Part shown: positions 8,500 through 46,362 of the stretch, in pieces
Layout: every line of letters begins with the position of its first letter
Numbering within the stretch: position 1 is the stretch's first letter
Origin: an uncultured Myxococcales bacterium
GTDB taxonomy: Bacteria; Myxococcota; UBA727; CAYLZW01
Reading direction: 5' to 3'
Length of the DNA stretch: 64,000 nt
Assembly: GCA_964388085.1 (NCBI GenBank)
Contig: CAYLZW010000002.1
Coordinates: forward strand, 225 to 64,224
The notes under the pieces: generated by a model
Seen by the model: only the letters and a program-made list of their open reading frames with translations
What the model was told of the DNA's origin: nothing
Database searches by the model: none
Made by a program: the position numbers and the translations under genes

Positions 8500-8582
8500 C
8501 CCGATGCGGCCTCTGGCCCCGCGGCCACCGTGACCTAGCGCACGTGCTAGCCTGCGCGCAGATCGGGTGTGGGAGCACGAAC

Positions 8583-9512
8583 ATGAAGATCTTTCTGACG
8601 GGTGCAACGGGAGCGGTTGGCCGCGGCCTCGCGCGTGGCTTCACGAGCGCGGGTCACTCGGTGGTCGGCCTCACGAGCCGGACGGAGAACAAGGCGCTCA
8701 TCGCGGCCGATGGCGGCACGGCGGTGGTCGGCGACGTCCGGGATGGCTCCTCCTGGCTCGAGCACGCCAGAGGCGCCGACGCGGTCGTTCATGCCGCGCA
8801 GCTCACGAGCAAGCGCCCAAACAAGAAGCAGGCGCAGGAGACCGCCGACGCCGATCTCAAATGCGTCGAGCTGCTCATCGAAGCGGCGAAGGGAAAGCCC
8901 CTCCTCTACACGAGCGGCGTCTGGGTCTACGGCGCCGGCAAGGATCGACGCAGCGAGAGCGCGGCGACCGCCCCGTTCCCCCTCATCGCGCACAAGCTGA
9001 GCGCCGAGAAGATGGTGCTGAGCGCGGCTCAGTCGGGCGACGTCAAAGGCGTCGTCATCCGCCCAGCGACCGTCTACCAGCCCTGGGGACTGTTCGAGAA
9101 CCTCTACCTGAAGACCATGGCGAAGGGCGGGTCCGCCAAGTACCCCGGCAGCGGGCAGGATCTGAAGAGCTGGATCCACGTCGACGATCTGGCGCGCGTC
9201 TATGTCGCCGCGGCCGAAAAGGGCCTGAGCGGTCAAGTGCTCAACGCGGCCGATGACGAGCCCGCGACCACGGCGCAGGTGATCGAGGCCATGGCCGAGG
9301 CGTTCGGCGCGAAGAAGCCGGGGAGCGCGCCGGCGTTCATCATCAAGCTCGTGCTCGGCTCCTTGCTGTCGCCGCCGCTGCTCTCCGACATCGTGTGCTC
9401 GAACGACGCCATGAAGAGCGTCCTCGGCGTGCAGCTGGCCTATCCGAGCTATCGCGAAGGCGTGCGCGCCGTCGCCGAGCAGTACCGCGGCCTGCAGCAG
9501 CAGGCGGCCTGA
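8583..9512 (+). CDS. NAD(P)-dependent epimerase/dehydratase-family (extended SDR) protein
   Basis: Starts MKIFLTGATGAVGRGLARG (Rossmann GxxGxxG). Length ~310 aa. Lies 8 nt upstream of the giant kinase gene. Confidence 0.75.
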   Translation: MKIFLTGATGAVGRGLARGFTSAGHSVVGLTSRTENKALIAADGGTAVVGDVRDGSSWLEHARGADAVVHAAQLTSKRPNKKQAQETADADLKCVELLIEAAKGKPLLYTSGVWVYGAGKDRRSESAATAPFPLIAHKLSAEKMVLSAAQSGDVKGVVIRPATVYQPWGLFENLYLKTMAKGGSAKYPGSGQDLKSWIHVDDLARVYVAAAEKGLSGQVLNAADDEPATTAQVIEAMAEAFGAKKPGSAPAFIIKLVLGSLLSPPLLSDIVCSNDAMKSVLGVQLAYPSYREGVRAVAEQYRGLQQQAA

Positions 9513-13188: not shown

Positions 13189-13202
13189 CTCGAGGTGATG
13201 CC

Positions 13203-13709
13203 ATGCCGGAGACCGGGAACTTGCGCTGGGAGGTCGAGAACGACGCGGACGGCGCCGCGCGGCTGGTGCTGAGCGGAGACATCGACGACCACGTGCGTAT
13301 GGGCGCGGTCGAGCCGCCGGCCGCGAGCAAGCTCGTCGTCGACCTCTCGGGCGTGCGGCGCATCAGCTCCTTCGGGGTAAAGGAGTGGGTGCCCTTCGTG
13401 CGCGGGCTGAAGGCGCGCGGCGGCTCCATCGTCTTCGAGCGCTGCCCGAGCGTCATGGTGCGGCAGTTCAACATGGTGCCGTCGACGCGCGCCGGCGCCG
13501 TCATCAAGAGCGTTTTTTTGCCCTACTTCTGCGACGACTGTGACGACGAGCGGAACGACTTCCTGCTCGAGGTGAGCGGCGACGAGCCGCCCTTCGAGCC
13601 GCCCGCGCGCGCCTGCCCCGAGTGCGGCGCCGAGCTCGAGTTCGACGACGTACCCGAGTCCTACTTCGGCTTCTGGACGCAGCGAGACGAGCTCATCGAC
13701 GAGGACTGA
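13203..13709 (+). CDS. Standalone STAS (anti-sigma-factor-antagonist-like) domain + C4 zinc-ribbon protein
   Basis: VVDLSGVRRISSFGVKEWV...IVFERCPSVMVRQFNMV aligns to SpoIIAA DLSFMDSSGLGVI...MVVCAISPAVKRLFDMS, with the conserved phospho-acceptor position (SS). Followed by FCDDCDDE...CPECGAEL. Overlaps the stop of the giant kinase. Paralog of 42763..43254 and of the kinase A/B/C N-termini. Confidence 0.75.
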   Translation: MPETGNLRWEVENDADGAARLVLSGDIDDHVRMGAVEPPAASKLVVDLSGVRRISSFGVKEWVPFVRGLKARGGSIVFERCPSVMVRQFNMVPSTRAGAVIKSVFLPYFCDDCDDERNDFLLEVSGDEPPFEPPARACPECGAELEFDDVPESYFGFWTQRDELIDED

Positions 13710-17300: not shown

Positions 17301-18084
17301 GGACGCGCCGACGATGACGCTGCCGCTCGGGCCCGGGCGCATCTACACCAGCCTGTTCTCCATCACGACGTCACGCTTCGACGTCGAGAACATCGGGACC
17401 GCGGTGGACAAGGAGCTCGCGCTCGAGGCGCTGCTCGATCCCTCCTTCTTCTGGTTCCCTGGCCGCGAGACCTGGTCCGACGTCGAGCTGTGGATGGTGA
17501 ACTTCTATTGGACGCACGCGCCCGAGCTGCTCGACGTCATGGGCTCGGTCATCGTCGCAGACACCACCCGGCTCGCCGCGTACTGGGACGGCGACGAGGC
17601 CAGCTACCGTGACTTCACGGATCTCTCGTCGACGTCCGCGGGCGTCGCCATCGACCCGGCCATCGGCTTCAGCCTGCGCCTGCGCGCCGCCATCTACGGC
17701 ATCGGCCTGCTCTACAGCGGCTACGTCGACAAGTCCTTCCTCGATTACAGCCGCATCTACGTCGTGGGCGCGGACGACGAGGTCCCGCTCGATCCGAGCG
17801 TTCCCGTCGTGGACTTCCTCGATCCCCGCACCGGCAAGCTGTATCGGGCGCCCAGCTTCCTCACCGTCGAGGGCATCGAGCTCGGCATCGGCGCGCGTCT
17901 GCTACAGAAGGCGCAGGGCTCGCTGTTGGCCTCGACGGGCGCGGCATCGCCCGAATACGCGGCCTGGGCAGCGGACATGCTGAAGGACGACCTGGCGGTC
18001 ATCGAGCTGCTGCGCGGGCTCGTGCAGCGCTTCGAAGACGCGACGTTCACCGGCCCGATCAACTCTCTGGATCGGCTCCCGTGA
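14350..18084 (+). CDS. Large secreted lipoprotein with metzincin-type zinc-protease motif
   Basis: Signal peptide with lipobox (LPLLSC). HELGHAFGLTH = HExxHxxGxxH metzincin zinc site in mid-protein. Start may be 14350 or 14386. Confidence 0.75.
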   Translation: MRCPPLARLRRRMRLVVMLVCSLPLLSCVEPPEQPDALPYWMLNKAHFADGGEWYFQRTVTEVPYTAGFTFVGDADLVDRIQWKIEEGFLIAYRAHPLIGGNEHDVAGGNDYDAPVAMYPIRRHFDVEGDSVIERPMRPWYERGWMDVDWGNDLVTSHRFSVARLERGGPSYVVTDPSDPEAIRFGVRSGGGWQDSMGGELPRMPRIDHIEFTTHVTVSPTLQADPETGNPGCNGGIADSIIDIYDCAPSDIAFRTSILRRLPDNDFEQKKRPTGLLAKRWFARFFQMGTYFLDDEYGLTDAGLDLKVSHFGIWQRSTDDDGAPLPYRERKVRPIAFHVNGNFDPALLGVARDALESWDEAFVETVRDLRLSECVDAGGSAADCAGDVEVPEDVLVFCPHNPVQKDDPEACGIAGTVARVGDLRYNMLAWITTPNVNRIVGLAWWAPDLQTGEIVNASAKLYAPDIDRAAATTRDAILLMRGDITPEDLFRGGYVPSSMADLEELVHSLERYSEDPFAANIEVSERTRPFGGPDGSPVPGQSLGTPDTFDGASFRSSSLAPFVGTRFESSAVDVESLLLAGIDPRSDDLSAEMIGAASPLRRSFASRPRRLTETKLRELGGDLDLPVAADLAYLLDETSELSADELYQEVRRRFAQATMMHELGHAFGLTHNFSGSYDAFNYKQGYWDARDPTPRYDRQPSPGERDGNLTDYAYASVMDYHPSANAYLHGIGSFDKAAIKWLYGDLVEVFDPGDGDLELLKAMWFRQPEPHLPTVIVDDPSHPGGHTHRSLHPAKLAQEYPNLLQRDWVPLAKLEDPYDWGAPLAAADGRVAVPYLSCNDELIGVLPYCQPYDMGLDPYEIVSNLSNWYHAYYMLNSFRRARLDFSTTRYVDQMWMRVFFPLKKWQNWLAHSQWEFAMQEPTVHSDEDFLEPLARSADVSFNFLARLLAVPNFGPHRQVTMPTGEELLVTHEFNLAISHPDPPMDAPTMTLPLGPGRIYTSLFSITTSRFDVENIGTAVDKELALEALLDPSFFWFPGRETWSDVELWMVNFYWTHAPELLDVMGSVIVADTTRLAAYWDGDEASYRDFTDLSSTSAGVAIDPAIGFSLRLRAAIYGIGLLYSGYVDKSFLDYSRIYVVGADDEVPLDPSVPVVDFLDPRTGKLYRAPSFLTVEGIELGIGARLLQKAQGSLLASTGAASPEYAAWAADMLKDDLAVIELLRGLVQRFEDATFTGPINSLDRLP

Positions 18085-19369
18085 GCGCCACGGAGAACAC
18101 GCGCTCGAGCTCGTCGCCGTAGAGCTGCTTCAGGATGACCGCCGTGGGCGGCAGCTTCGGCGGATCGCGACCGAGCGCCGCGTACAGGCGTCGCTCCGCG
18201 CCCTCGATGTAGTGACCGACCCGCTGCGCCATGGCGCCGTGCACGAGCGCGCGATCCAGCACCACGGCGGCGACGTCGTCGGGGAGATCAGCCCGAGGGG
18301 CCAGACGTCTGCCTGTGAGTGCGGCGAGCTCCTCCCGCGGGCGCGTCCAGTCGTCGGCGATGGCCCCCGCGACCTGCACCGCGCCGTCGTGCGGCAGCCC
18401 CTCGAGATCGGGCACCACGACGCCCAGCACGCCGCTCATCACCGTCCGCTCGTCGTCATCGAGCTCGTTCACCGCCTGATCGAGGAGCGTCGCCGGCATG
18501 GCCTCGTGCGCGGCGCCGATCGCCTCCGTGAGCGCGGCCGGCACGTCCTCGCGCTCCCAGGTGGCGCGCGCGAGGTCGTCGAGGATCAGCCGGCGCGCGT
18601 TGCGCAGCAGGTACTGCACGACGATGAAGTTGTACGTCCCGTAGGCATAGCTGCGGAACGCGTCGAGGTCCGGCAGCACGCGCGCCACCTCGGCCGCGGT
18701 CACGTCGGCGTCGAAGTCGCCCTCGCCCGCGCCGAGCAGGAACGCAGCCAGCGCCTCCGAGAACATATGCCTTGGACCGGCGCAGACCTGCTCCGGCCCG
18801 ATCAAGAGCCCGGACCCATCCGCTTCTTCCCACACGCGCTCGGGCGTGACGGGCGGTCCCTCGTCGCCGCCCATCTCCGCGAGCAGCGCGTCGACGTTCA
18901 GCATGCTGGTGACGGGGTTGAAGCCGAGCACGAGCTTGAAGGCGGAGCCCACCACGGGGGGCACCGGATGGTCGCCGAGGGCCGGCTCTCGTCGTCGCCA
19001 CAAGAACCACGGCACCATGGTGATGAGCTGGCCGACGCACTGCGCGTCCCGGTAGCGCAGCTCGCTGACGCCGGTGTCCTCGAGGTACAGCGTCCGGAAG
19101 TAGCGAACGTAGGAGAGCAGCTCCTTCCAGTGCTTCGTCATTTGTCGAAGCGCCGAGACGTTCATGGGGTTCTCGTGCCCCTGGCGCGAGTCCTCGTACG
19201 GGCAGCGGCGCAGCTCCATCTCGAAGCCCGGCGCGCGACTCTCAGGCGGCACGCGCCACTCCCCGAGGTGGCGGCCTTCGCCGTCGAGCAGCAGGTGCAA
19301 GCGTGCTTGGGCGATGAGCCCGTGCTCGACGACGAGCTCTGCGTCGGGCGAAGGGATGGCATCAGACAT
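18059..19369 (-). CDS. Hypothetical protein, paralog of 19362..20552 (conserved RCPYxxSR...HExPMNxSAL N-terminal motif)
   Basis: Start taken at MSDAIPSPD (M60 of the ORF-track frame). ~40% identity to the upstream paralog by eye. 8-nt overlap with the upstream gene's stop. Confidence 0.6.
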   Translation of the reverse strand: MSDAIPSPDAELVVEHGLIAQARLHLLLDGEGRHLGEWRVPPESRAPGFEMELRRCPYEDSRQGHENPMNVSALRQMTKHWKELLSYVRYFRTLYLEDTGVSELRYRDAQCVGQLITMVPWFLWRRREPALGDHPVPPVVGSAFKLVLGFNPVTSMLNVDALLAEMGGDEGPPVTPERVWEEADGSGLLIGPEQVCAGPRHMFSEALAAFLLGAGEGDFDADVTAAEVARVLPDLDAFRSYAYGTYNFIVVQYLLRNARRLILDDLARATWEREDVPAALTEAIGAAHEAMPATLLDQAVNELDDDERTVMSGVLGVVVPDLEGLPHDGAVQVAGAIADDWTRPREELAALTGRRLAPRADLPDDVAAVVLDRALVHGAMAQRVGHYIEGAERRLYAALGRDPPKLPPTAVILKQLYGDELERVFSVALTGADPES

Positions 19370-20552
19370 CGGGCACCTCTCGAGAGACGCGGGAGAAGTA
19401 GCGCGCCAGCGCGTCACCAAACAACTCGTGAGCCAAGGCAACCGGATCCTTCGGGTCGCGCGCCAGCGCCTCTCTGCCGAGCGCCGCGCGGACGGCGTCT
19501 TCGCAGCGTAACGCACCCTCCCCCACGAGCACCTCGAGGCGCTCATGGAGCGCAGCGCGATCCGGCACGGCGCGCTTGGCGTGCTCGCGAAAGGCGGCGG
19601 CCATGTCGTCGAGGGTCCGCCGCGCGGCGGCGCCGCTCGGGCTCAGCATGGCGGACAGCGCCTGCAGCATGTCTGCGCGCTCATCGTCGTCGAGCGCCGA
19701 GAACGGCTCCGTCCAATCGCTCGCCGGGGCCGCCTCCTCGAGCGCGCGCTTCGTCTCGGGGGCGTCCGGCCCTGCCGCCAGCAGGTCCTCGACGAGGAGG
19801 CGCCTCACGACGACGAAGCAGAAGCGCAGCACGGTGAAGTCGATGCTGGCGTGCACGTAGCGCGCGAACACCTGGCTGTCCGGCAGCCATCCCCGCACGC
19901 GGGAGACGACGTCGGCCGGCACCGCGGGGCCCACGATGAGGGCGCCGGCGAAGTCTTCGATGAGCTTCGGCGGCCCGGCGCACACCTCGTTCGGCCCGAT
20001 GAGGGCACCGGACTGCTCCGCCTCGTCGTGGATCGACGCGCCGGTGAGCGGCGGCGCGCTCTCGAGCTCGCCCGCCATCTCGTACAGCAGCTCGTTCAGC
20101 GACATCCGCTGCACGACGTCGTCGATGCCGCGCATAAGCTTGAAGGTCACCGCCGCGAGCGGATCGAGGGCGCCGCTCTCGACCGGTGCCTGCGCGCGGC
20201 GCGTGAGGAACCAGGGCAGCAGCTTCATGTGCTGGATGACGTGCCACACCTCGAAGAAGCGCGCGGGGGCGTGGCCGAGCGCAGCGCTGTGCAGGGAGTG
20301 GAAGTAGCCCACGAGCCCCAACACGTCGCTCCAGCGCTGCGTCATTTGCGTCAGCGCCGACGCGTTCATGGGGTGCTCGTGATGATGCCGCGAGCCCGTG
20401 TAGGGGCAGCGCTTCAAGACCATCTCGGCGCCGCCCGCCGGCTCGTCGAGGACCGCCCGCTCGCCGAGCGCTCGCCCCTCGCGATCGCGCAGGGCGAAGA
20501 TGCGCTCGCGAGGCACGTGCAGCACGAAGAGCTCACGGGGAGACGGGGACAC
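19362..20552 (-). CDS. Hypothetical protein, paralog of 18059..19369
   Basis: Shares the motif LKRCPYTGSRHHHEHPMNASALTQMT. Divergently transcribed from the HlyD-like gene (~90-nt intergenic). Confidence 0.6.
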   Translation of the reverse strand: MSPSPRELFVLHVPRERIFALRDREGRALGERAVLDEPAGGAEMVLKRCPYTGSRHHHEHPMNASALTQMTQRWSDVLGLVGYFHSLHSAALGHAPARFFEVWHVIQHMKLLPWFLTRRAQAPVESGALDPLAAVTFKLMRGIDDVVQRMSLNELLYEMAGELESAPPLTGASIHDEAEQSGALIGPNEVCAGPPKLIEDFAGALIVGPAVPADVVSRVRGWLPDSQVFARYVHASIDFTVLRFCFVVVRRLLVEDLLAAGPDAPETKRALEEAAPASDWTEPFSALDDDERADMLQALSAMLSPSGAAARRTLDDMAAAFREHAKRAVPDRAALHERLEVLVGEGALRCEDAVRAALGREALARDPKDPVALAHELFGDALARYFSRVSREVPDV

Positions 20553-20644: not shown

Positions 20645-22594
20645 GTGCACGAAAGCAGCGAGGGCGACGGTCCTTGCGCTATTCTGCCCACCGGCCGTTG
20701 TCAGAAATCCTCAGCGGCCTCCTCGACGTGCATCGGTGGGACGTTGGCCACGCAGTTCCCGAAGCTACGCTCCGACTTGATCGTCCAGCGCCTCGACGAG
20801 GGCAGCCGCGTGGTGTTCGCGGTGTCGACCCCGGACGGCGCGGTCGACCAGCGCTTCAGCGAGCGGGTCTACTTCGCGATCCATGCGCTCCGGGGGGTGA
20901 ACGACGCCGGCAGCTGGCTCGCCGCAGTGCGTCAGCGCGATCCCTCGCTCACCATCGGGCAGCTGCAAAAGCTCCTCGACAAGGTGCAGGCGATGGGGCT
21001 CCTCGAGGTCACGGACCCTCGCGCGCGCGCCCCCGCTCCGCCGCCAGCGGCGGTGCACTATGTCGCTCCCCAGCCGGAGGGCGGCGGGGAGGACGACTTC
21101 GGCGAGCGCACCGTCGTCGCCGCCGTCTACAGCGATCCGTCCGTCTCGCTCGAGGCCGAGCCTCGCTTCGTCACGACACCGGTGACCGCGCCCATCGCGC
21201 CCTTCCAAGCGCCGCCCTCGGTGCCGTCCGCGCCGCCGCAGAGCGACCTCGATCGTCGCTACCTGCAGGCCGGGCTCGAGCACTTTCGCGCGGGCGCGCT
21301 CGACGAAGCCGAGCGCTACCTCCACGCCGCGCTCGAGACGAACCCGTCGAACGCCGAGGCCGGCAGCCTCTTGCAGATGGTCCGTGACGCGAAGGCCGGC
21401 CGCGGCCCTTTGAGCCGCGACGACATGCCCCCCGTCGAGGCGACGAACGAGCCGGTGCCGAGCGAAGGCGAGGAGCCCGCCGGCGAGGCGGTGGACGAAG
21501 GTGGCGCGGCTGCCTACGAGGACGCGGCGCTGCAGGCAGAGTCACAGGCGGACGCCACACGTCGACGTTGGGCTTGGCGCGCCAAGATCTTCGGGCGCCT
21601 GGTCGCGCTGCCTGCCGCCATCATCGTCGCGCTCGCGTTCATCCCCTACCCGCTCAGCATCACGTATCCGTGCGCGGTCAAGCCGCTGCAGCAGGACACC
21701 GTGCGCGCTCCACGAGACGGCGTCATCGCCGCCATCACCGTCGACGAAGGCGCGCGCGTCACGAAGGGCCAGGAGATCGGCAACCTGCACAACGCCGCGA
21801 CGCGCACCGCGGTGGTCAAGAGCCGCGCGGCCGTCGAGAAGGCGAAGGCCGAGCTGCAGGCGCTCAAGGAGGGCAACCGCGCCGAGGAGATTCAGGCGGC
21901 GCGCGCGCGTGTGAACGGCCTCTATCGCGAGCTCAGCGTCGCCAAGGACCGGGTCCGCCGCGTGCGCGGGCTGGTCAAGCAAGGCATCGCCCCGCGCGGC
22001 GAGCTCGAGACCGCGCGCGCACAGGAGGCGGCCATCTCCGGCCAGCTCTCGCAAGCCAACGCGGACCTGAAGCTCGTGCAGGCCGGCGCGCGCGACGACG
22101 AGCTGGTGAAGAAGGAGGCCGAGATCAAGAGCCTGCAGGCGCAGCTCGAGCTCGACGAGGCGAACCTCGAAGGCACCGTGTTGCGCTCCTCCATGGACGG
22201 CCTCGTGACGACGCTGAAGCCGCGCGACCTCGTCAGCACGCGCGTGGTCGCCGGCCAGCCCGTGCTCGAGATCGCCGTGCTCGACGAGATGCTCGCCGAG
22301 GTGCTCGTCAACGAGCGCGACTTCGACGTGCTGAAGCCCGGGCTGCCGATCGAGATCAAGGTCGCGGCCTACCCCGGCGCCGTGTTCCAGGGGAAGGTGG
22401 AGCGCATCGCGCAGCAGGTCGAGATCATCGACGGGCAGACCATCATCCGCGTCGAGGGCGCCATCAAGAACCAGGACGGGCTGCTCGTGCCCAACATGAC
22501 GGGCTTCGCGCAGATCGAAGCGGAGGAGATCCCCATCTTGAAGCTGCTGACGCGCCGCGCGATCCGCTGGATCCGCGTCCGCTTCCTCATCTGA
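20645..22594 (+). CDS. HlyD-family periplasmic adaptor (membrane fusion protein) with long cytoplasmic N-terminal extension
   Basis: Single TM (LVALPAAIIVALAFIPY) at ~aa 320, then a biotinyl/lipoyl-like hairpin plus coiled coil (KAELQALKEG...LKLVQAG) and a beta-barrel region typical of HlyD. The N-terminal 300 aa are unusual for HlyD. Start uncertain. Confidence 0.75.
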   Translation: MHESSEGDGPCAILPTGRCQKSSAASSTCIGGTLATQFPKLRSDLIVQRLDEGSRVVFAVSTPDGAVDQRFSERVYFAIHALRGVNDAGSWLAAVRQRDPSLTIGQLQKLLDKVQAMGLLEVTDPRARAPAPPPAAVHYVAPQPEGGGEDDFGERTVVAAVYSDPSVSLEAEPRFVTTPVTAPIAPFQAPPSVPSAPPQSDLDRRYLQAGLEHFRAGALDEAERYLHAALETNPSNAEAGSLLQMVRDAKAGRGPLSRDDMPPVEATNEPVPSEGEEPAGEAVDEGGAAAYEDAALQAESQADATRRRWAWRAKIFGRLVALPAAIIVALAFIPYPLSITYPCAVKPLQQDTVRAPRDGVIAAITVDEGARVTKGQEIGNLHNAATRTAVVKSRAAVEKAKAELQALKEGNRAEEIQAARARVNGLYRELSVAKDRVRRVRGLVKQGIAPRGELETARAQEAAISGQLSQANADLKLVQAGARDDELVKKEAEIKSLQAQLELDEANLEGTVLRSSMDGLVTTLKPRDLVSTRVVAGQPVLEIAVLDEMLAEVLVNERDFDVLKPGLPIEIKVAAYPGAVFQGKVERIAQQVEIIDGQTIIRVEGAIKNQDGLLVPNMTGFAQIEAEEIPILKLLTRRAIRWIRVRFLI

Positions 22595-22612
22595 GCTGCG
22601 CAAGGAGGAGCC

Positions 22613-25165
22613 GTGACCGTCGAACGACCGCTGGGACGCGACGACCTCGAGATCGCTCCTCGCATGGTGAACGGCGAGCTCACCTACTTCGTCGCGGATC
22701 CGCTGAAGAACGAATACCAGCAGCTCGAGGAGCTCCAGTACGAGGTGTTCCGCCGGCTCGACGGCCAGCGCAGCATCGACGACATCTGTAAGGAGCTGTA
22801 CGACACCTACGAGCTCGAGGTGGACGCACAAGAGCTCGCCGAGTTCATCGACAACCTCGGTGAGCTCAACCTGCTCGACATCACGAGCGACGAGCGCGTC
22901 GACACCAAAGACGGCCTCGACCTCGCGAAGAAGGTGAAGAAGTTCCTCGAGCGCGAAGGCGTCGCCTACAGAGGACGGGGCGTCGCCAGCCGCGCACCGC
23001 ACGGTCGCGAGCGGCGCGGCAACCAGCGCGACGCGCAAGCCATCGACCGCGCGCTCGAGCACCTCGACCGGGGTGAGATCCGTCCCTGCGCCATCGTGCT
23101 CCGTCAGCTGCTGACGACGAGCCCGAGCAATTGGCGGGCGCGCTATCTGCTTCAGGCCCTACAGAAGGCAAACGTCGGCGGCCTGCGCAACATCGACAAC
23201 GCGTGGTGGTGGCGGGTGCCGCTCACGAACCCGGATCGCTGGCTCGGGCGCCTCGAGCGCGTGCTGCGGCCGTTCGTGTTCAACCGCCTGTTCCTGCCCG
23301 CGTTCCTGCTGCTGTTCGCGTTCGCCTGGGTCCTCGTCGGCTACCAATGGGAGCGCCTCGAGCAGGACCTGCGCCACATGATGCGCTTCGGCTGGATGCT
23401 CGAGTACCCGCTGTTCTTCCCGCTCTTCTTCCTCTCCGTCACGCTGTCGATGGCGCTGCACGAGCTCGCCCACGGCGTGACGTGCAAACACTTCGGCGGC
23501 CACGTCCGGGAGATGGGGCTGCTGTTCGCCTACGGCAGCCCCGCCGCCTATTGCGACATCTCCGCGACCTATCTCTTCGAGAACCGCTGGCATCGTGTCG
23601 CGGTGCCCGTCGCCGGCCCCATCTTCACGCTCGCGTACTGGGCGCTCACCGTCGTCGTCTACTCGCTGGTGGAGTCGAACAGCGCCCTCGGCGTCTATTG
23701 CGTGGTGTCGATCCCGCTCATCATGGTCGAGAGCATGGGGGCGATGCTCAACCCGCTGGTGAAGAACGACACCTATTACGCCCTCACCGACGCCCTCGAC
23801 TATCCGAACCTGCGCGATGACGCCTTTCAGTATCTGCAGGCGCGCGTCGAGGGCTGGCTCGTCGCGCAGCACATCGAGATGCCGGAGGAGATGGAGGCGC
23901 GACGCGGCACGCTGCTCGGCTACGCGATCCCCGGCACCCTGTTCACGGGCGTCGTCATCATCGCGATGCTGTACACGTTCGCCCAGATCCTGGTTCGCGA
24001 GCTGCACACGCTGGGGCTCATCCTGAGCGTCGCGTTGTTCTGGTACACCGTCGCCCGCCCCGTCCGTCGTTGGTTCGGGAGCTTGTGGCAGCGACGGGCG
24101 CTGTTCTGGCAGTCACGCCGCTTCAAGCGCATTGTCACGGCGACGGGGACGGCGCTCGTGTTGGCGCTCATCGCCCCGTGGCCGCTACGCATCGAAGGCC
24201 CTTGCACCGTGACCCCCGAGATCAAGAAGGTGCGCGCGCCGCGAAGCGACATCATCGTCGAGGTGCTCGCCCAGGAAGGGGAGCATGTCGCGGAGGGGCA
24301 GCCCCTGCTCCGGCTGCGATCGGAAGAGCAGGTCGCCGCGCTGATCCACGCGGAGGCCGAGCTCGAGACCGGCGAGCTCGAGCTGGCGCGCCTGGTCACC
24401 GGTATGCGCAGCGAAGAACGCGGCGTGCTCGTCGCCCAGGTCACGAGCGGGCGGCGCTCGCTACGCGCCGCGGCAGCTCGCGTTCACCGCCTGCGCAGCC
24501 TCGTCGGTCGGGGGCTCGCCTCCCGCGCGGCCCTCGAGGAGGCGCTCGCCGCCGAGGCCGCCGCGCGCACGGACGCCTCGTCGGCGTCCATGAAGCTGCG
24601 CGCGAAGGCCGCGGCGGCGTCGTCGAGCGACCTGATGATCGCGCAGTCGCAGGTCGAGCTGCTCATCGCGCAGCGCGACGCGGCCCGCCGGGAGCTCGAG
24701 CAGTCGCTCGTGCGCAGCCCCGCCGACGGCTATGTCCTCTCGGTCCCAGGCACTCCCGCCAGCGAGCTCGTCGGCTCGCACCTCGAGGCGGGCACCGAGC
24801 TGCTGCGCGTGCGCACCGGCGGCCCGGTCCGCTTGTCCGTCGAGATCCCCGTCACCGAGCCCATCTCGTCGCTGACGCCCGGCGCCAAGGTGGAGGCGCG
24901 CCTGCTCGGCTTCCCCTCCCTCGCCATCGCGGGCACGCTCGAACGCGTGAGCCGATCGTTCGCGGAGGCGTCGCAGAACGACACCGGCATCTCGGTCTTG
25001 CCGGCCGACGTGCTCCTCGACGAGGAGAGCGTAGCGCCGGGGACGCTCGCCGCGGGCCTGAGCGGGCGCGTGAGCATGCGCGCCGGCTGGCATCCGGTCG
25101 CTTGGCACATCTATTTGCGTGTCGCGCGGCTCATCCAGATCGACGCGAGCCGCCTGCTCGGCTGA
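22613..25165 (+). CDS. Tripartite fusion: PqqD-like (RRE) domain + M50-like membrane zinc protease + HlyD-like adaptor
   Basis: GTG start with AAGGAGG RBS. The N-terminus DDLEIAPRMVNGELTYFVADPLKNEYQQLEELQYEVFRRLDGQRSIDDI is PqqD/RRE-like. HELAHGV (HExxH) sits within a multi-TM region. C-terminal hairpin/coiled-coil HlyD-like region (EAELETGELELARL...). Confidence 0.8.
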   Translation: MTVERPLGRDDLEIAPRMVNGELTYFVADPLKNEYQQLEELQYEVFRRLDGQRSIDDICKELYDTYELEVDAQELAEFIDNLGELNLLDITSDERVDTKDGLDLAKKVKKFLEREGVAYRGRGVASRAPHGRERRGNQRDAQAIDRALEHLDRGEIRPCAIVLRQLLTTSPSNWRARYLLQALQKANVGGLRNIDNAWWWRVPLTNPDRWLGRLERVLRPFVFNRLFLPAFLLLFAFAWVLVGYQWERLEQDLRHMMRFGWMLEYPLFFPLFFLSVTLSMALHELAHGVTCKHFGGHVREMGLLFAYGSPAAYCDISATYLFENRWHRVAVPVAGPIFTLAYWALTVVVYSLVESNSALGVYCVVSIPLIMVESMGAMLNPLVKNDTYYALTDALDYPNLRDDAFQYLQARVEGWLVAQHIEMPEEMEARRGTLLGYAIPGTLFTGVVIIAMLYTFAQILVRELHTLGLILSVALFWYTVARPVRRWFGSLWQRRALFWQSRRFKRIVTATGTALVLALIAPWPLRIEGPCTVTPEIKKVRAPRSDIIVEVLAQEGEHVAEGQPLLRLRSEEQVAALIHAEAELETGELELARLVTGMRSEERGVLVAQVTSGRRSLRAAAARVHRLRSLVGRGLASRAALEEALAAEAAARTDASSASMKLRAKAAAASSSDLMIAQSQVELLIAQRDAARRELEQSLVRSPADGYVLSVPGTPASELVGSHLEAGTELLRVRTGGPVRLSVEIPVTEPISSLTPGAKVEARLLGFPSLAIAGTLERVSRSFAEASQNDTGISVLPADVLLDEESVAPGTLAAGLSGRVSMRAGWHPVAWHIYLRVARLIQIDASRLLG

Positions 25166-25182: not shown

Positions 25183-27531
25183 TCACGCGTTCGCGTGCGG
25201 ATCGCGATTGCGCTCCCCCGGTGGCAGACACGGGCGCCCCGCGCGCGCCGCGACCTCGTCGAGGCGAGACGTCGCCAGCCGCCGGCTCTGGCGTCCCGGC
25301 GTGAGCTCCACCAGCCCGGGCACGAGCACCTTGCAGACGCGGAAGCCGATCTCCGCGATCTCGTCGGACACGAGGTCGAACGCGAAGGCCTCGAGGTCGC
25401 GCTCCTCCAGCGCGGCGAGGATGTGCTCGACGTCAGTCCTCGGATCGACGCCGCCGACGGGCGCGATGTCGTCGAGCGCGACGGTGTCGTCGGCGACGAG
25501 AAACGAGAGCTTCGCCGCGTTGGCTGGGTTCAAGTAGTAGAGGTACGTCGGGAACCAGGTGCGCCAGCCCTGCTCCACGTCTTCGGGATCATAAGGCGTA
25601 TTGCGCCAGTCCTTGGCGGGGTCGGGCGTCATGCCGAGGGTCTCGTAGTGCAACGCCAGCTCGCACAGCCCTCGCGAGAGCGCGGCTCGTGGGTCCAGAT
25701 CGGCGGTGGCGACGACGACCATCCCGCCCGCGTCGAAGTTTCCGCGCCGCTCGCGCATGCGACCGAGGGTCAAGAAGGCCGGCAGATCGAAGTCGATGCG
25801 CAGATCGAGGACCACGACGTCCATGCCCGCGGCGTCGACGAAGCGCAGCAGCTCATCCGCATAGGCGTCGGGCAGCGTCGGCGGGAGCCGCACTCGCCGC
25901 AACGCCATGCGTTTGTACCACGCGATGACGTACTGATCGCGCTCGATGACCTCGCGCAGACCGTTCAGCAACGCGCGACGATAGGACACGTGCGACGCGC
26001 CGCCCGTCGTCAGGTTCTGATCGACGACGCGGTTTGGGTACGTGTCGTCGGTGAGGCACGGCGTCACGAGCTCTTGCGGGAACAGCTTCGCTTCGCCTGT
26101 CTTCAGCGAGCATCCCCAGGTCCAGTTGAGCGGGTGGTCGTCCGAGAAGCGGGGGCGCGGAAAGCCCGGCGTGCGGTATTGCTCCTCCTCGTAAAGGATC
26201 AGGCCGCGCGGATCGAAGGCGTGCCCGGCGACGTCTCGGTACGGCACGCCGACGAGATAAGGGCGGTGCGTGTACTGCGCGTAGCGCTCTATCCCCTCGC
26301 TCATCGACACGAGGCGTCGATGCTGCAGCGTCGGGCCCGTGCCGTTGATGCCCTGAAACCCCGTGGAGATGTGCTCTCGGCCGCGGGCGAGCGCGACGCC
26401 CCCCCAGCACAGCGGGAAGCGGCGGAAATAGTGCGCGCGCTCGCTCCACTCCTCGGCGTACTTGAAGATGCCCGTGGCCGGGTCGTTGTAATCCAGCATC
26501 AGGCGGTCGTCGGGCACGTCAACGTCGACGTCATCGCGCAGGATTGCGCGCCAACGCTCGGCATAAGCGCGCGCCGCGTCGTCGAGGGGCGCCGCGCTCG
26601 CCCCCGTGAAGGCCTTGACGCTCGGTCCGCACGCCGGGCAGTGCGCGTGGCGGATGACGCGATGTGCGGTCACCAGCCCGGTGCGATGGCAGACGCGCAC
26701 GGCGGCGTCGCGGCGTCCGGCGAACGCGCCGTCATCGTCGACGGCGGAGAGAAACCCCAGCAGCGCCGCGGCGACGCGCTGCGCTCGACCATCGACGGTG
26801 CGCGCCGCGAAGCGCACGACCGGCTCCCGTTCCGCCGCGTCCCACAGCTCGACCTGATGCCAATGCACACGCGCCATGACGCGCAGCGCGAGACAGGTCG
26901 AGCACGGCGTCGCCGACGGGCGCAGCGGCCCGATGAACGTCTCGTCGGCCATGAGCACGACGGGAACGAAGCTGAGCCCCAGCTCGAGCGCAGCGGCCTC
27001 TAGCTGGTCGCGCCTGCGATCGTGCACGGTCTGAAAGCAGGCGACCACGAGACATCCCCGCGCACGCGCGAGGTCGCTCGGGTGCGCGCTCGCCAGGACG
27101 GTGACGTCGATGCCGGCCGCTCGCAGCGCCTCCGCGACCGAAGGCGTGGTCGCGTCGTCACCGAGGAGGAGCGCCCCCTTCGCGAGCGCGGCCGCGACGC
27201 GCGTGCTCGCGAAGTCGAGTGAGACCGCGGAGGCCCGCTCGACGGCGCCCTCCGCCAGGAGGAGATCGAGGACCTCTCCGACGTCGTCCTCCCCGAGCCC
27301 GCTCGCCTCCGCCAGCTCCCGGAGCGTCTTCGGCTGCTCGAGGCCGCGCAGCACCGCGCCGACCGGTCCGTCTGCGTCCGCGTCGATCTCCCGCACCATC
27401 TCGCGGTCCGACACCGCGATGCGCCCACTTCGGGAGAAGCACGTGACAGAGCTGACGAGTTGGTAGCGCGCCTCGGCCGGAGCTTCGTTGGGGGCGCGCG
27501 CGTCGGCGGGAGCCACTTCGTCGTGCGACAT
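25183..27531 (-). CDS. Fused E1-like (ThiF/MoeB-type, with CxxC) / YcaO-domain protein (RiPP-type cyclodehydratase or thioamidase)
   Basis: YcaO motifs GTGPTLQHRRLVSMSEGIERYAQ (SEAIERY-like), WGGVALARGREHISTGFQGIN and a proline-rich C-terminal region. The N-terminal half is Rossmann-like with HCPACG. Most N-terminal ~80 aa are helix-turn-helix/RRE-like. Confidence 0.85.
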   Translation of the reverse strand: MSHDEVAPADARAPNEAPAEARYQLVSSVTCFSRSGRIAVSDREMVREIDADADGPVGAVLRGLEQPKTLRELAEASGLGEDDVGEVLDLLLAEGAVERASAVSLDFASTRVAAALAKGALLLGDDATTPSVAEALRAAGIDVTVLASAHPSDLARARGCLVVACFQTVHDRRRDQLEAAALELGLSFVPVVLMADETFIGPLRPSATPCSTCLALRVMARVHWHQVELWDAAEREPVVRFAARTVDGRAQRVAAALLGFLSAVDDDGAFAGRRDAAVRVCHRTGLVTAHRVIRHAHCPACGPSVKAFTGASAAPLDDAARAYAERWRAILRDDVDVDVPDDRLMLDYNDPATGIFKYAEEWSERAHYFRRFPLCWGGVALARGREHISTGFQGINGTGPTLQHRRLVSMSEGIERYAQYTHRPYLVGVPYRDVAGHAFDPRGLILYEEEQYRTPGFPRPRFSDDHPLNWTWGCSLKTGEAKLFPQELVTPCLTDDTYPNRVVDQNLTTGGASHVSYRRALLNGLREVIERDQYVIAWYKRMALRRVRLPPTLPDAYADELLRFVDAAGMDVVVLDLRIDFDLPAFLTLGRMRERRGNFDAGGMVVVATADLDPRAALSRGLCELALHYETLGMTPDPAKDWRNTPYDPEDVEQGWRTWFPTYLYYLNPANAAKLSFLVADDTVALDDIAPVGGVDPRTDVEHILAALEERDLEAFAFDLVSDEIAEIGFRVCKVLVPGLVELTPGRQSRRLATSRLDEVAARAGRPCLPPGERNRDPHANA

Positions 27532-27998: not shown

Positions 27999-30329
27999 GT
28001 GACCATCGAACCCTCTCCGCAACAGACCGGACGCTTCTCGTCGTCGGGCCTGTCGCTCGCGTACGAGGTCCACGGTGACGCGCCGCTCACGCTCGTGTTC
28101 TTGCCCGGCGTGGGCTTCTCCCGAGTGTGCTTTCGGCCCATCGCTCGCTACCTCGCCCGACATGTGCGCTGTGTCCTCGTGGACGCGCGGGGCACCGGCG
28201 AGTCCGAGGCACCCGAGGGGGACGACGCCTACGCGCTCGCGCGGCAGTCGGACGACGTCATCGCCTTGCTCGACCACCTCGAGATCGAGCGTGTCGTCAT
28301 CGTTGGGCACTCCTTCGGCGCCAACGTCGGCGTGGATGTCGCGCTGCGTGCGCCGTCGCGCGTGCAAGGGATCGCGCTGCTCTCGGTCGCGCTCGCCGCT
28401 GAGCTCATCGACGCGGCGCTGCAGGTCGCCGGTGACGATCCCGACCGATTGAAGGTGGACGTCCCGGCGGCGCTCGCGCCTGCCATGCGCCAGTGGCCCG
28501 CGCCGGGGGACGCGCTGTGGGGGCGCGAGGGACACCACCGCCTGACCGGCAAGATGCGCGAGATCGATCAGCGCGACAAGGTCGCGACGCTGCCGATGCC
28601 CTGGCTCGCGCTCGTCGGTGCGCGCGACCCCATCTCGGCTACGTCGCTGCCGCTGCTGCGGGACCTGCTGCCGCCGGCGCGCTGCCTGCTGCTCGACGAG
28701 GCGGGTCATCATCCACACATCGAGGCCCCCGAGCGCAGCGCGGACGAGATCGCGCGCTTCCTTCAGCAAGCGGTGCTCACGCCGCCCGCGTCCGCCACGC
28801 CGCCGCTGCGCGTGACGGTCACGCTCGTCGAGCAGGAGGACGGTGTCGTCGTCGATGACCAGCTCACCGGCTTCTCCTTCGCGCTCGGCGAGAGCGAGGC
28901 CGCCATCCTGCGCGGGCTCGGCGGCGCGCTGCCCGAGCTGGCGCGCGCCGTGGACGTCGCGGAAGACGACGTCGCGAGCTTCATCGAACAGCTCCGCGCG
29001 CTCGGGCTCCTCTCGGAGGGCCTCTCGGCGGCCGAGATCGAAGGGCGCCAGGCGATGGCGCGCCGCGCGTCGCGGGACGAAGAGCGCTTCGAGGCCGTCC
29101 TGAACGCGATTCGCTTCGCCTTCGATCGCGTCTCGCTGCACCGACAACGGATGAGCGCCGCGGGCGTCACGCCCGACGACCTCGCTGAAGAGTCGGACCT
29201 CGGCCGCATCCCGCCCATGACCAAGGACGTGCTGCGGGCACATTTCCCCGATGGGCTCGTGCCCGACGGCGTCGACGTCGCCTCCCTGCTGCGGGACGGC
29301 AAGATCGTCGTCGGCGCCACCAGCGGAAGCACCGCCGAGCGCCTGCAGGTGCTCTTCGACGCGTCCGCCGGCGGGCTGCCGGAGGCGTCGCACTCTCTCT
29401 GGGGCCTCGACGACGACGTGGAGCTGAGCTCAGGCGCGGTGTTCACGAGCCCCATCTGCGCGGGCTTCGAATGTCACCTCGGCATGACGTCCAAGGCGGC
29501 GCGGACCCGCGGCTCGACGCTCACGCTCAACTCTTGCGACGATCCCTTCGCCATCAGCGACGAGGAGGTGCGCGCCATCGCCGCGGAGATGCGCGAGTAC
29601 CAGCCGCGCGTGCTGTTCGTGAACCCCTGGTACGCCGTCGTGCTGTTGCGACGGGTCCGCGCGCTCGCGCTCACGCTGCCGGACGTCGACGTCGTGCTGG
29701 CGAGCTATCAGTACCTGACCCGCCGTCATCGCCAGCTTTTGCGCCAAGGCTTCCGCGCGCCGGTGTTCTCCTATTACGGAGCGACGGACCTCGGCGGCGC
29801 GCTCATCGGGGTCGAGTGTCACCGTGGATCCATGCATGTGCGGGAGGACCACGTGCACCTCGAGATCGAAGCGCTCGGCGGGGATGACGACAGCCTCGGC
29901 TGGGTCACCGTCACGACGCTGTCGAGCCCGCACATGCCGCTCGTGCGCTATCGCGTCGGCGACCTCGCTCGTCCGACGCCGGAGCCCTGCCCTTGCGAGC
30001 AGGGGGGCGAGTGGCGCTCCTTCATCCTCGAGGGCCGCGCGCGAGACACCCTGCAGAGCACAGGCCGGCGGACCGTCACCACCCGCATGATCGACGACGC
30101 CATCGGTGAGGACGGCCCCGACTTCTATCGCCTCGTGCAAGAGGGCGGCGACCGCTTTCGCCTCGAGACGCTGAGCGGCGCCGATGAAGCGCACGCCATC
30201 GGCGCCGCGCTCTCGCGCTTGCCGCGCGTGCTGGGAGAGGGCGCGCGTATTCGCGCCGTCACGGTGAAGCAGTTCTCCCCCGAGCGCTCGCTCAAGTTCC
30301 GCCAGACCGTGCGCGAGGACTCGGCATGA
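27999..30329 (+). CDS. Alpha/beta-hydrolase domain fused to PaaK/CoF390-synthetase-like adenylate-forming domain
   Basis: N-terminus LVFLPGVGFSRV...VIVGHSFGANVG (GxSxG nucleophile elbow). C-terminal half has the phenylacetate-CoA-ligase-like layout (GATSGSTAERL...YYGATDLGG...VRYRVGDL). GTG start. Confidence 0.75.
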   Translation: MTIEPSPQQTGRFSSSGLSLAYEVHGDAPLTLVFLPGVGFSRVCFRPIARYLARHVRCVLVDARGTGESEAPEGDDAYALARQSDDVIALLDHLEIERVVIVGHSFGANVGVDVALRAPSRVQGIALLSVALAAELIDAALQVAGDDPDRLKVDVPAALAPAMRQWPAPGDALWGREGHHRLTGKMREIDQRDKVATLPMPWLALVGARDPISATSLPLLRDLLPPARCLLLDEAGHHPHIEAPERSADEIARFLQQAVLTPPASATPPLRVTVTLVEQEDGVVVDDQLTGFSFALGESEAAILRGLGGALPELARAVDVAEDDVASFIEQLRALGLLSEGLSAAEIEGRQAMARRASRDEERFEAVLNAIRFAFDRVSLHRQRMSAAGVTPDDLAEESDLGRIPPMTKDVLRAHFPDGLVPDGVDVASLLRDGKIVVGATSGSTAERLQVLFDASAGGLPEASHSLWGLDDDVELSSGAVFTSPICAGFECHLGMTSKAARTRGSTLTLNSCDDPFAISDEEVRAIAAEMREYQPRVLFVNPWYAVVLLRRVRALALTLPDVDVVLASYQYLTRRHRQLLRQGFRAPVFSYYGATDLGGALIGVECHRGSMHVREDHVHLEIEALGGDDDSLGWVTVTTLSSPHMPLVRYRVGDLARPTPEPCPCEQGGEWRSFILEGRARDTLQSTGRRTVTTRMIDDAIGEDGPDFYRLVQEGGDRFRLETLSGADEAHAIGAALSRLPRVLGEGARIRAVTVKQFSPERSLKFRQTVREDSA

Positions 30330-31546
30330 GCGAGCCCCTCGACGTCGCCCGCGTACGCAGCGACTTCCCGTTGCTCGCGCGCGAGGTGCACGGACGCCCC
30401 GTCGTCTATCTCGACAACGCCGCGACCACGCCGAAGCCGCGCGTCGTGCTCGAGGCGATGCGCCGCTACGACGAGGACATCAGCGCGAACATCCACCGGG
30501 GCAAGCACCTGCTGTCCGAGGAGGCCTCCGAGCTGTTCGAGGACGCGCGTCGCAAGGTCGCGCGTTTTCTGAACGCGGCGCCCTCCGAGGTGGTGTTCAC
30601 GCACAACACGACGCACTCGTTAAACCTCGTCGCGCTCGGCTCTCGCCTCGACGGAAGCGCCAACGTGGTCACGACCGTGCAGGAGCACCACTCGGTGCTG
30701 ATGCCGTTTCTGCAGCGAACCAATGTGCGCTTCGTCCCGGTCGGCAAGGATGGCCGCGTCGATCCACAGCGGGTCTTCGACCAGGTCGACGACGACACGG
30801 CGCTCATCGCCGTGGCCTGGGCGTCGAACGCCACCGGCGCCGTCCAGCCCATCGCGGAGATCACGCGGCGCGCGAGGGAGAAGGGCATCCCGACCCTGGT
30901 CGACGGCGCGCAGGCGGTCCCGCACCTGCCCGTCGATGTCGACGCGCTCGGTTGCGACTTCCTCGCCTTCTCTGGTCACAAAATGCTGGGCCCGACGGGC
31001 GTCGGCGTCCTTTGGGGCAAGCGAGACCGCCTCGAGGCGCTCGGCTCCCCCCTCCCCGGAGGCGGCTCACCGCGGCTCGTCACGCCGAGCGGCTTTACCC
31101 TGAAGCCCGTGCCCCACCGGCTCGAGGCAGGCACCCCCGCCATCTCGCAGGTCATCGGCCTCGGCGCTGCCGTCGACTACCTGCAGTCCTTTCCGCCGGA
31201 GTCTCTGCTGGCGCATGAGCGAGCGCTCGCCGAGCGGCTGACGCGCGGCCTGCAGGACATCCCCGGCGTGGAGCTTCTCGGCCCGCCGGCCGGCGAGGAG
31301 CGGCTCGCGCTGGCGTCATTGGTCCTGCACTCGCAATCGCTGAGCGGCGACCACGTGGCCATGATCCTGAGCGACACGAAGTCCATCCTCGTGCGCTCGG
31401 GCCATCACTGCTGTCACCCGTACTTCGACTCGTTCGGCGCCAACGGCGCGGTGCGTGCGTCGGCTTATCTCTACAACACCCTCGAGGACATCGACGCGTT
31501 CACCGACGCCTTCCGCGAGATCGTTTCCCGCCTCTACGCTTCTTGA
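30326..31546 (+). CDS. Class V aminotransferase-fold cysteine desulfurase (SufS/CsdA-like)
   Basis: LDNAATTPKP, SGHKMLGPTGVGVL (PLP-lysine), HHCCHPY... with RxGHHCA-like persulfide cysteine region. Start overlaps the stop of the upstream gene (ATGA). Confidence 0.85.
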   Translation: MSEPLDVARVRSDFPLLAREVHGRPVVYLDNAATTPKPRVVLEAMRRYDEDISANIHRGKHLLSEEASELFEDARRKVARFLNAAPSEVVFTHNTTHSLNLVALGSRLDGSANVVTTVQEHHSVLMPFLQRTNVRFVPVGKDGRVDPQRVFDQVDDDTALIAVAWASNATGAVQPIAEITRRAREKGIPTLVDGAQAVPHLPVDVDALGCDFLAFSGHKMLGPTGVGVLWGKRDRLEALGSPLPGGGSPRLVTPSGFTLKPVPHRLEAGTPAISQVIGLGAAVDYLQSFPPESLLAHERALAERLTRGLQDIPGVELLGPPAGEERLALASLVLHSQSLSGDHVAMILSDTKSILVRSGHHCCHPYFDSFGANGAVRASAYLYNTLEDIDAFTDAFREIVSRLYAS

Positions 31547-42760: not shown

Positions 42761-42762
42761 CG

Positions 42763-46360: not shown

Positions 46361-46362
46361 GG

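Follow-up and report, generated by a model that had tools for sequence, protein, structure and literature searches.

A window of 64 kb (the whole stretch of DNA that was analysed; about 70% GC) from contig CAYLZW010000002.1 of an uncultured Myxococcales bacterium was found to carry two adjoining genes, here called gene 1 and gene 2, encoding adaptors of the HlyD type with N-terminal domains resembling the recognition elements (RREs) of peptides that are made on ribosomes and modified after translation (RiPPs). Gene 2 also contains an M50-type membrane protease, and a candidate precursor peptide and a TolC-like outer-membrane factor are encoded close by (Table 1). Genes 1 and 2 and TolC probably constitute a module for the leader-peptide-directed cleavage and export of this peptide, a reading in which we have moderate confidence.

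Coding frames were judged with a filter on the GC content of the third codon position. Longest-ORF gene calling is unreliable at 70% GC, and small open reading frames (ORFs) and neighbouring genes were counted from searches of all ORFs. Domain scans of the window against Pfam and NCBIfam covered 32 gene products rather than every ORF. Related loci are designated L001 onwards; gene 2 and its close relatives, such as those in L001, L004, L086, L087 and L088, are referred to as the clade.

Gene 2 encodes a fusion of RRE, M50 protease and HlyD adaptor

Gene 2 starts with GTG, 18 nucleotides (nt) past the stop of the co-directional gene 1, and is preceded by the ribosome-binding site AAGGAGGA, in agreement with the original prediction from the letters of the sequence. 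The three domains named in that prediction were likewise borne out. PqqD (PF05402) was matched with 23.4 bits, exactly the Pfam cut-off, Peptidase_M50 (PF02163) with 28.8 bits (cut-off 27.2) and HlyD_3 with 43.5 bits (cut-off 22.2), and HlyD_3 and HlyD_D23 matches were present across genes 1 and 2. A profile of the N-terminal 97 residues matched the solved PqqD 3G2B over the whole domain (E = 8.9e-9), and the RRE profile also matched the lasso-peptide RREs TfuB1 (1.6e-4) and TbiB1 (0.012). In the AlphaFold2 model (pLDDT 87.3, pTM 0.70) residues 13–84 are predicted to adopt a beta-beta-beta-alpha-alpha-alpha fold with a pLDDT of about 90 (strands 13–19, 22–29 and 34–39; helices 40–48, 55–66 and 72–84), together with a helical membrane domain and an adaptor whose alpha-hairpin measures about 60 residues.

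The hydropathy profile places the N-terminus inside, seven transmembrane helices between residues 226 and 525 and the C-terminal 325 residues in the periplasm. Residues H283, E284, H287, P381 and D386 were invariant in an alignment of 43 homologues and N380 nearly so. These correspond to the M50 signature HExxH...NPxxxxD, and the motifs lie at the ends of the predicted transmembrane helices 2 and 4. In NCBIfam, the protease part came closest to daptide_HExxH (NF041824; E = 8e-41), with 140.4 bits against a cut-off of 300, and YydH-LiaK (NF058609) was matched with 25.1 bits against a cut-off of 225. By these scores the protease is related to the daptide metalloprotease and to YydH-LiaK without being a member of either. 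For M50, a single-sequence search of the PDB gave MjS2P (3B4R) alone, at a non-significant E of 0.41.

Comparison of gene 2 with the PDB by Foldseek gave EmrA of EmrAB-TolC as first match (8ZAR, E = 2e-16), with MacA and AcrA coming next. The hairpin tip RLRSLVGRGLAS matches R-x3-L-x6-S, which we take to be the ‘RLS’ motif by which MacA, AcrA and HlyD dock on TolC; several homologues in the clade deviate from it. The closest homologue of gene 2 came from a metagenome-assembled genome labelled ‘Deltaproteobacteria bacterium’.

A candidate precursor peptide with a basic leader

On an independent assembly of the locus, a gene of 39 codons was called upstream of the YcaO gene, with the product MDAKLQAPEKKKLNLKVKTLEKKTAPMKARGSSPVIGYT. 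The peptide consists of MDAKLQAPEKKKLNLKVKTLEKKTAP followed by MKARGSSPVIGYT, that is, a Lys-rich leader ending in Ala-Pro (...KKKLNLKVKTLEKKTAP) and a core of 13 residues. A profile search brought the family to 11 members in all (P0190–P0200, 37–50 aa), which share the leader form KKKLNLKVKTLEKKTAP, 5–10 variable residues and, at the C-terminus, [ST]P[VI]IG[YAFS][TSCG]. No NCBIfam model matched the peptides of the clade or those of the wider family described below.

The net charge of the RRE ranged from -10 to -17 in seven proteins of the clade, versus a median of -1 (range -9 to +4) in 36 others, and that of the last 17 residues of the leader was +5 to +6 in the clade versus about -5 to +1.5 in the wider family. 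Such a switch is what contact between RRE and leader would predict, and the acidic RRE of the clade would accordingly be suited to reading the basic leader. Gene 2 is also not alone in carrying an RRE-like domain. One RRE profile matched gene 1, gene 2 and an internal segment (about residues 258–330; hhalign 95.1%, E = 3.3e-8) of the hydrolase-ligase encoded divergently from the peptide, and the YcaO protein matched TIGR03882, the TOMM leader-binding domain, at residues 188–320 (46.6 bits, cut-off 36.9). With RRE-like domains in three proteins and a leader-binding domain in the YcaO protein, several products of the cluster seem built to hold the same leader. The original prediction had proposed RiPP export at this locus, and these four domains and the presence beside YcaO of a peptide gene, which that prediction did not list, lend it support.

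Peptides ending in Thr, Ser or Cys occur together with a YcaO gene (the window and L001). The peptide of L086 ends in LIGFG, lacking a C-terminal Ser, Thr or Cys, and the 15-kb contig of that locus has no YcaO gene. This pattern suggests that the YcaO enzyme acts on the last residue of the peptide.

Leaders of the wider family

A sample of 80 species-level loci with distant homologues of gene 2 (L006–L085) was searched with a hidden Markov model (HMM) of the clade peptides. The next-best matches were small ORFs beside M50-HlyD genes, sharing the leader ...LxLx[VI]EELE[QE]RIAP. The strict leader pattern was found in 62 ORFs from 30 of the 80 loci, with up to five in a single locus. Every one of them shares the strand of the M50-HlyD gene, the other strand having none, and 50 of the 62 lie upstream of that gene at a median distance of 219 nt. 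By a rough estimate from residue frequencies, about one strict match would be expected by chance in the approximately 2 million translated residues. Near-matches in seven further loci bring the loci with leader ORFs to at least 37 of 80. In the reverse test, an HMM of the wider-family leader ranked three clade peptides first, second and fourth among 2,652 ORFs of clade loci. The peptide of the window probably carries a divergent, Lys-rich version of the wider-family leader. Conservation of the leader stops at the Pro, which makes this residue the likely processing point.

Cores of the wider family vary between 7 aa and over 100 aa, most being rich in Gly, Asn, Ser and Pro and 30–42 aa in length. 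One core type, ...GNPGNNNPP[RL]NNTNNPGNEGTGG..., is almost unchanged in 11 loci from six phyla. The motif GY[DE]GQPGNQ is repeated inside some cores, and leader ORFs may stand in tandem (L023:4331-4880 and 7235-7646; L030:7122-8383; L017:8887-9728).

Gene 1 as a protease-less paralogue

The original prediction described gene 1 as a HlyD protein with a long cytoplasmic N-terminus starting at position 20645. The description stood: approximately 280 cytoplasmic residues precede one predicted transmembrane helix, and the protein matched the HlyD model TIGR01730 with 108.6 bits (cut-off 94.9) and Pfam HlyD_D23 with 3e-16. The start did not. GTG 20645 opens the longest ORF, but TTG 20744 (616 aa) is the likelier start, as the orthologues begin with MSRxLPKL... 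at that point and the public call (P0201) has 616 aa. With the RRE profile built on the family of gene 2, residues 1–90 gave a match (hhalign 96.7%, E = 4.5e-10), and the AlphaFold2 model has the beta-beta-beta-alpha-alpha-alpha arrangement at residues 13–83, with a pLDDT of about 80–89. The TPR-like part is 38% identical to that of gene 2 and the transmembrane and HlyD part 31% identical (E = 1e-23). By these three similarities, gene 1 is a paralogue of gene 2 without the protease.

In some gene 1 orthologues (Table 1) a second RRE-like domain (...EREYRLLLELDGVRDL...) was present, which is absent from gene 1 of the window. A SufS-like gene lies between gene 1 and gene 2 in L004 and L087, and L093 has a gene 1 orthologue without an adjoining gene 2. 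The 794-aa gene beside that orthologue was considered and found not to be M50-HlyD.

Distribution of the fusion

A word-indexed search returned seven full-length relatives of gene 2 with 36–45% identity. Dozens of entries of 710–800 aa, carrying the JGI name ‘putative peptide zinc metalloprotease protein’, align with it from the RRE through M50 to HlyD. In an exhaustive phmmer search with residues 1–525 (the RRE-M50 part), 7,685 cluster representatives had E <= 1e-3, of which 4,222 had E <= 1e-10; among the best 150 of the 7,685, most are 680–870 aa long, i.e. fused. A genome scan with an alignment of 13 sequences, taking one genome per species, detected at least 589 loci in Acidobacteriota, Gemmatimonadota, Verrucomicrobiota, Planctomycetota, Eisenbacteria, Bacteroidota, Betaproteobacteria and others. 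No close relative of the clade was found among the matches listed, the best having 33% identity. The triple fusion is not peculiar to this locus; it is the normal domain arrangement in a large uncharacterised family. The original prediction had regarded it as a local fusion of parts that are separate elsewhere. This had to be abandoned, given that the public homologues are already RRE-M50-HlyD fusions and that the fused architecture proved widespread in other genomes.

Particular to the clade are a protease-less RRE-HlyD paralogue, the TPR-like insert, an acidic RRE with a basic leader and the link to a YcaO cassette. In the wider family the M50-HlyD gene is mostly the sole adaptor gene of its locus, and about 14 loci have two extra HlyD genes upstream. 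A three-gene variant (Table 1) is made up of a long HlyD of 650–900 aa, which in some cases has a GAF-like N-terminus, a short HlyD of about 310–350 aa and M50-HlyD. In the Gemmatimonadota variants two peptides precede the genes, with cores of approximately 6–9 aa (e.g. ...ELSVEELEERIAP-AKRPSLA). Unannotated genes of two sizes, about 350 and about 246 aa, both without a Pfam match, stand directly downstream of M50-HlyD on the same strand, in six loci each; it is possible that they encode additional components or modifying enzymes.

TolC and the search for a pump

The TolC gene is located 6.3 kb from gene 2, and a six-frame scan of the window revealed no ORF with both LSGGQ and a Walker A motif. 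This corroborates the original prediction, which had placed TolC some 6 kb away and found no ABC or PCAT transporter in the window. None of the 32 scanned gene products had an ABC, MFS or RND match in Pfam, and there was no C39 gene among them either. In L001 and L088 a TolC orthologue adjoins that of gene 2; in L086 it lies nearby, and TolC adjoins the M50-HlyD gene in four Planctomycetota loci. Among 87 related loci no ABC or polytopic transporter was consistently near the M50-HlyD gene. ABC-like ORFs occurred in only seven of them (related Acidobacteriota), as soluble ATPase subunits of about 285 aa at a distance of 4.7–7.6 kb, and polytopic ORFs near M50-HlyD genes were sporadic.

Genes 1 and 2 could also be the adaptors, one of them with a leader peptidase, of an ordinary tripartite exporter whose ABC, PCAT or MFS pump is unlinked. 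TolC is often encoded apart from its partners, the adaptor fold of gene 2 is closest to that of EmrA, the adaptor of an MFS pump, and all characterised HlyD-family adaptors work, to our knowledge, with an energised pump. Only 64 kb of one contig were examined here. Adaptors are, however, normally co-encoded with their pump, and none adjoined in the 87 loci, which cover many phyla; moreover, the M50 domain sits where the membrane anchor of the adaptor would be. An unlinked pump is therefore considered unlikely.

Proposed mechanism

In the cleavage and export module favoured here, the cytoplasmic RRE of gene 2 would dock the helical Lys-rich leader (...KKKLNLKVKTLEKKTAP), after which the M50 protease with its seven transmembrane helices, HExxH and NPLxxxD being situated at the cytoplasmic ends of helices 2 and 4, would remove the leader at or near Ala-Pro. 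The core of 13 residues, to which the YcaO and hydrolase-ligase enzymes may by then have made modifications, would leave through a periplasmic duct formed by the EmrA/HlyD-like domains of genes 2 and 1, docked on TolC. An unlinked pump, the proton-motive force or release driven by the cleavage itself may provide the energy. The binding of the leader, the cleavage site, the translocation and a hetero-oligomer of genes 1 and 2 are all inferred.

Several points weigh against this module, for which the evidence consists of sequence and predicted structure. The RRE of gene 1 is not acidic (net charge +1), its hairpin tip has Pro at the Ser position of the RLS motif, and gene 1 orthologues can stand apart from gene 2 (L004, L087 and L093). 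About half of the 80 distant loci show no leader ORF, though many of these loci are truncated. The link between the window peptide and the wider family is not significant by E-value (E about 1–6 with an HMM of 17 columns) and relies on the ranks and on the common pattern L-x-L-x-V-x-x-L-E-x-[KR]-x-A-P. The no-pump result applies to 64 kb; a further 15.7 kb or so of the contig, and the remainder of the genome, lie outside. With the M50 proteases known to us, the products are set free into the cytoplasm or membrane, no M50 protease being proven to translocate a peptide, and we know of no precedent for a tripartite duct without an energy-coupled pump in the inner membrane.

A more far-reaching view, which we put forward tentatively and would sooner doubt than accept, is that RRE-M50-HlyD proteins represent a widespread new type of envelope-spanning peptide secretion, with the fused M50 protease as inner-membrane component and no pump. 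The RRE may then select leaders of the LxLxVEELExRIAP type, and cleavage of the leader, in place of an ABC, MFS or RND pump, may be coupled to release into the duct. The cargos would include the Gly/Asn/Pro-rich peptides of 30–40 aa that are almost identical across six phyla; as kinase genes recur among the neighbours, these peptides may be intercellular signals, which is speculation.

Neighbouring genes

The positions of all features are given in Table 1. The YcaO protein matched Pfam YcaO with 5e-54 and TIGR03604 with 3.6e-60; the latter score, 203.9 bits, is below the cut-off of 219.25, and the protein is SagD-related without being a certified member. Similarly, the SufS-like protein reached 408.9 bits with TIGR01979 (2e-122), below the cut-off of 475.1; its gene is also present in L001, L004 and L087. 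In four independent loci (the window, L001, L090 and L091) the hydrolase-ligase gene is linked to the peptide, and in the window and L001 YcaO accompanies them. No YcaO gene was found in the examined sequence of L004, L086 and L087, so that the YcaO link is not universal in the clade. The hydrolase-ligase has a DVU_1553-family match, and an arginase-family gene also occurs in L090 and L091.

Genes recurring in the clade (L001, L004, L086, L087 and L088) are those of the gene 1 and gene 2 types, TolC, DUF4953, the SufS-like protein, kinase-AAA_16 and GAF-SpoIIE. The DUF4953 lipoprotein is conserved in every long clade locus (orthologues in L001, L004, L086 and L087) and could be an extracellular processing protease; its only match is a short Met-zincin one around residue 650. 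This distribution, not shared by YcaO, would fit another cargo for genes 1 and 2, such as the DUF4953 metalloprotease itself, or else a self-immunity efflux pump. We think this very improbable: RRE domains bind short leaders, and in L001 and L086 the peptide family goes with the cluster. DUF4953 as cargo was rejected as unlikely, for the protein carries its own lipoprotein signal (...LLSC) and has no need of the route through genes 1 and 2.

Kinase-AAA_16, STAS and GAF-SpoIIE form a conserved signalling set, the same in L004, L087 and L088. The signalling neighbourhood as a whole (kinase-AAA_16, STAS, GAF-SpoIIE, PilZ and tandem kinases) is syntenic with L004, L087 and L093. In the wider family kinase-AAA_16 is the commonest neighbour family, with 26 loci, and regulated intramembrane proteolysis is the classic role of M50 proteases. 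From these observations gene 2 might be thought a regulatory intramembrane protease of the site-2 type in a kinase, phosphatase and STAS network, with HlyD as periplasmic scaffold or sensor, the more so as GAF-SpoIIE, STAS, PilZ and kinase genes are conserved around the clade clusters. The RRE of the PqqD and lasso B1 type and the adjoining leader-bearing ORFs indicate soluble peptide substrates instead, and both the adjacency of TolC and the TolC-type hairpin tip point to an envelope-spanning duct, which renders a purely regulatory protease improbable. Regulation and export need not exclude each other, should the exported peptide be a signal that the kinases sense.

The two minus-strand paralogues divergent from gene 1 had no Pfam or NCBIfam match. 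They share the motif RCPY...HE(N/H)PMN(V/A)SAL.QMT, and their sole homologues in the examined loci are two genes beside the gene 2 orthologue of L086. As their ORFs overlap by 185 nt (19362–19546), the gene at 18059–19546 probably starts later than its first ATG. The PSCyt2/PSD2, DUF1501 and PSCyt1 set is typical of Planctomycetes-like genomes and is found here in a genome of 70% GC that is rich in kinases.

Table 1. Features of the window and of related loci. Positions without a locus handle refer to the window.
Feature	Residues	Position	Strand	Remark
Epimerase		8475–9512		Pfam/NCBIfam scans
Ser/Thr kinase-AAA_16	1,222 aa	9520–13188	+	Pfam/NCBIfam scans
Small STAS protein		13146–13709	+	Follows kinase-AAA_16
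DUF4953 (Met-zincin) lipoprotein	1,244 aa	14350–18084	+	Domain scan and lipobox
Two paralogous genes	~495 and ~396 aa	18059–19546, 19362–20552	-	Divergent from gene 1
Gene 1: RRE-like, TPR-like, one transmembrane helix, HlyD	616 aa	probably 20744–22594	+	
Gene 1, RRE/PqqD-like domain	1–85	20744–20998		
Gene 1, disordered Pro-rich linker				After the RRE-like domain
Gene 1, TPR-like three-helix unit	168–217	21245–21394		
Gene 1, single transmembrane helix	about 282–300	21587–21643		Followed by the periplasmic HlyD adaptor
Gene 2: RRE-M50-HlyD fusion	850 aa	22613–25165	+	
Gene 2, RRE	1–89	22613–22879		
Gene 2, TPR-like insert	137–188	23021–23176		Clade-specific
Gene 2, M50 membrane domain	199–525	23207–24187		Seven predicted transmembrane helices
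Gene 2, HExxH	283–287	23459–23473		
Gene 2, NPLxxxD	380–386			
Gene 2, HlyD/EmrA-like adaptor	526–850	24188–25162		
Gene 2, hairpin-tip motif	626–637			RLRSLVGRGLAS
Fused TOMM-type YcaO cyclodehydratase		25183–27531	-	Convergent with gene 2, directly downstream of the peptide gene
Candidate precursor peptide gene	39 aa	27654–27773	-	Just upstream of the YcaO gene
Alpha/beta-hydrolase, RRE-like domain and PaaK-like adenylating ligase		27999–30329	+	Divergent from the peptide gene
SufS-like cysteine desulfurase		30326–31546	+	Pfam Aminotran_5 3.6e-112
TolC-like outer-membrane factor with signal peptide		31500–33377	-	Pfam OEP 2.4e-36
GAF-SpoIIE phosphatase		33422–35890		Pfam/NCBIfam scans
Further kinases and PilZ protein		38333–48591 region		Three tandem Ser/Thr kinases with STAS-like N-termini
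PSCyt2/PSD2 (DUF1549/DUF1585), DUF1501 and PSCyt1 genes		58499–62895	+	
Clade peptides in related clusters		L002:2761-2874 (L001/L002), L086:8899-9018	-	
Gene 1 orthologues with a second RRE-like domain		L001:7850-9994, L004:6526-8607, L086:305-2521, L087:1445-3520		
Three-gene variant, Acidobacteriota		L058, L064, L066, L070, L073, L074, L079, L080, L083		
Three-gene variant, Gemmatimonadota		L060, L061, L084		
Genes downstream of M50-HlyD	~350 and ~246 aa	L010:2865-3929, L043:3482-4222		And similar loci

Significance

If the export module is correct, a concrete function is gained for a family that has thousands of members in soil bacteria, is common among Acidobacteriota, Gemmatimonadota, Planctomycetota, Verrucomicrobiota and myxobacteria-like genomes and at present has no annotation beyond ‘HlyD family adaptor’ or ‘putative peptide zinc metalloprotease’. 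The product of this locus would then be a 13-mer ending in SPVIGYT, probably azoline-modified, the acidic RRE and the basic leader would be a specific recognition pair, and the leader would supply a recognisable signal for the mining of genomes for secreted peptides and RiPPs. For the secretion field the question is raised of a tripartite duct with a protease in place of a pump.

A literature search of incomplete coverage found no description of an M50-HlyD fusion or a LEERIAP-type leader; apparent mentions of ‘M50’ in reviews on adaptors turned out to be DOI strings. M50 proteases in RiPP maturation and HlyD/TolC ducts were already known. New here would be the family of M50-adaptor fusions with this leader, of which an earlier description is possible.

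Comparison with known systems

The module resembles the PCAT/HlyD/TolC exporters (class II microcin CvaAB-TolC and RaxABC), in which removal of the leader is coupled to export and an HlyD adaptor and a TolC channel take part, as is proposed here. The leaders are also alike, the Leu/Glu spacing of the amphipathic helix (L-12, E-8 and L-7 in ...LxLxVEELEQRIAP) being similar to that of double-glycine leaders. The differences lie in recognition by an RRE and cleavage by an M50 protease that are fused to the adaptor, and in a leader ending in Ala-Pro rather than Gly-Gly. By analogy the module would be PCAT-like in its working; with no ABC, no C39 and no Gly-Gly leader, it is not a member of the type I secretion or PCAT systems.

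M50 proteases are known from RiPP maturation in the form of EpeP/YydH, TglG/TmoG and the daptide protease, and EpeP is proposed to cleave as well as export EpeX (PMC10885120). Like gene 2, the proteases of epipeptides (EpeP/YydH), daptides and pearlins (TglG/TmoG) are polytopic HExxH zinc proteases, and theirs process ribosomal peptides. Gene 2 scores far under the cut-offs of these families (140 versus 300 and 25 versus 225). We know of no protease of the EpeP, daptide or TglG type with an N-terminal RRE, a C-terminal HlyD domain or a TolC partner.

The periplasmic part of gene 2 has the long alpha-hairpin and the lipoyl and beta-barrel domains of EmrA in EmrAB-TolC, with a target-normalised TM-score of 0.63–0.69. 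EmrA is anchored by a single transmembrane helix and needs the MFS pump EmrB, whereas gene 2 is predicted to be anchored by its protease of seven helices and has no linked MFS gene. With PqqD, TfuB1 and TbiB1, finally, the RRE of gene 2 shares a profile match and the predicted beta-beta-beta-alpha-alpha-alpha fold. Those domains stand alone or are joined to a modifying enzyme; that of gene 2 forms one polypeptide with a membrane protease-adaptor, and three such domains are present in one cluster.

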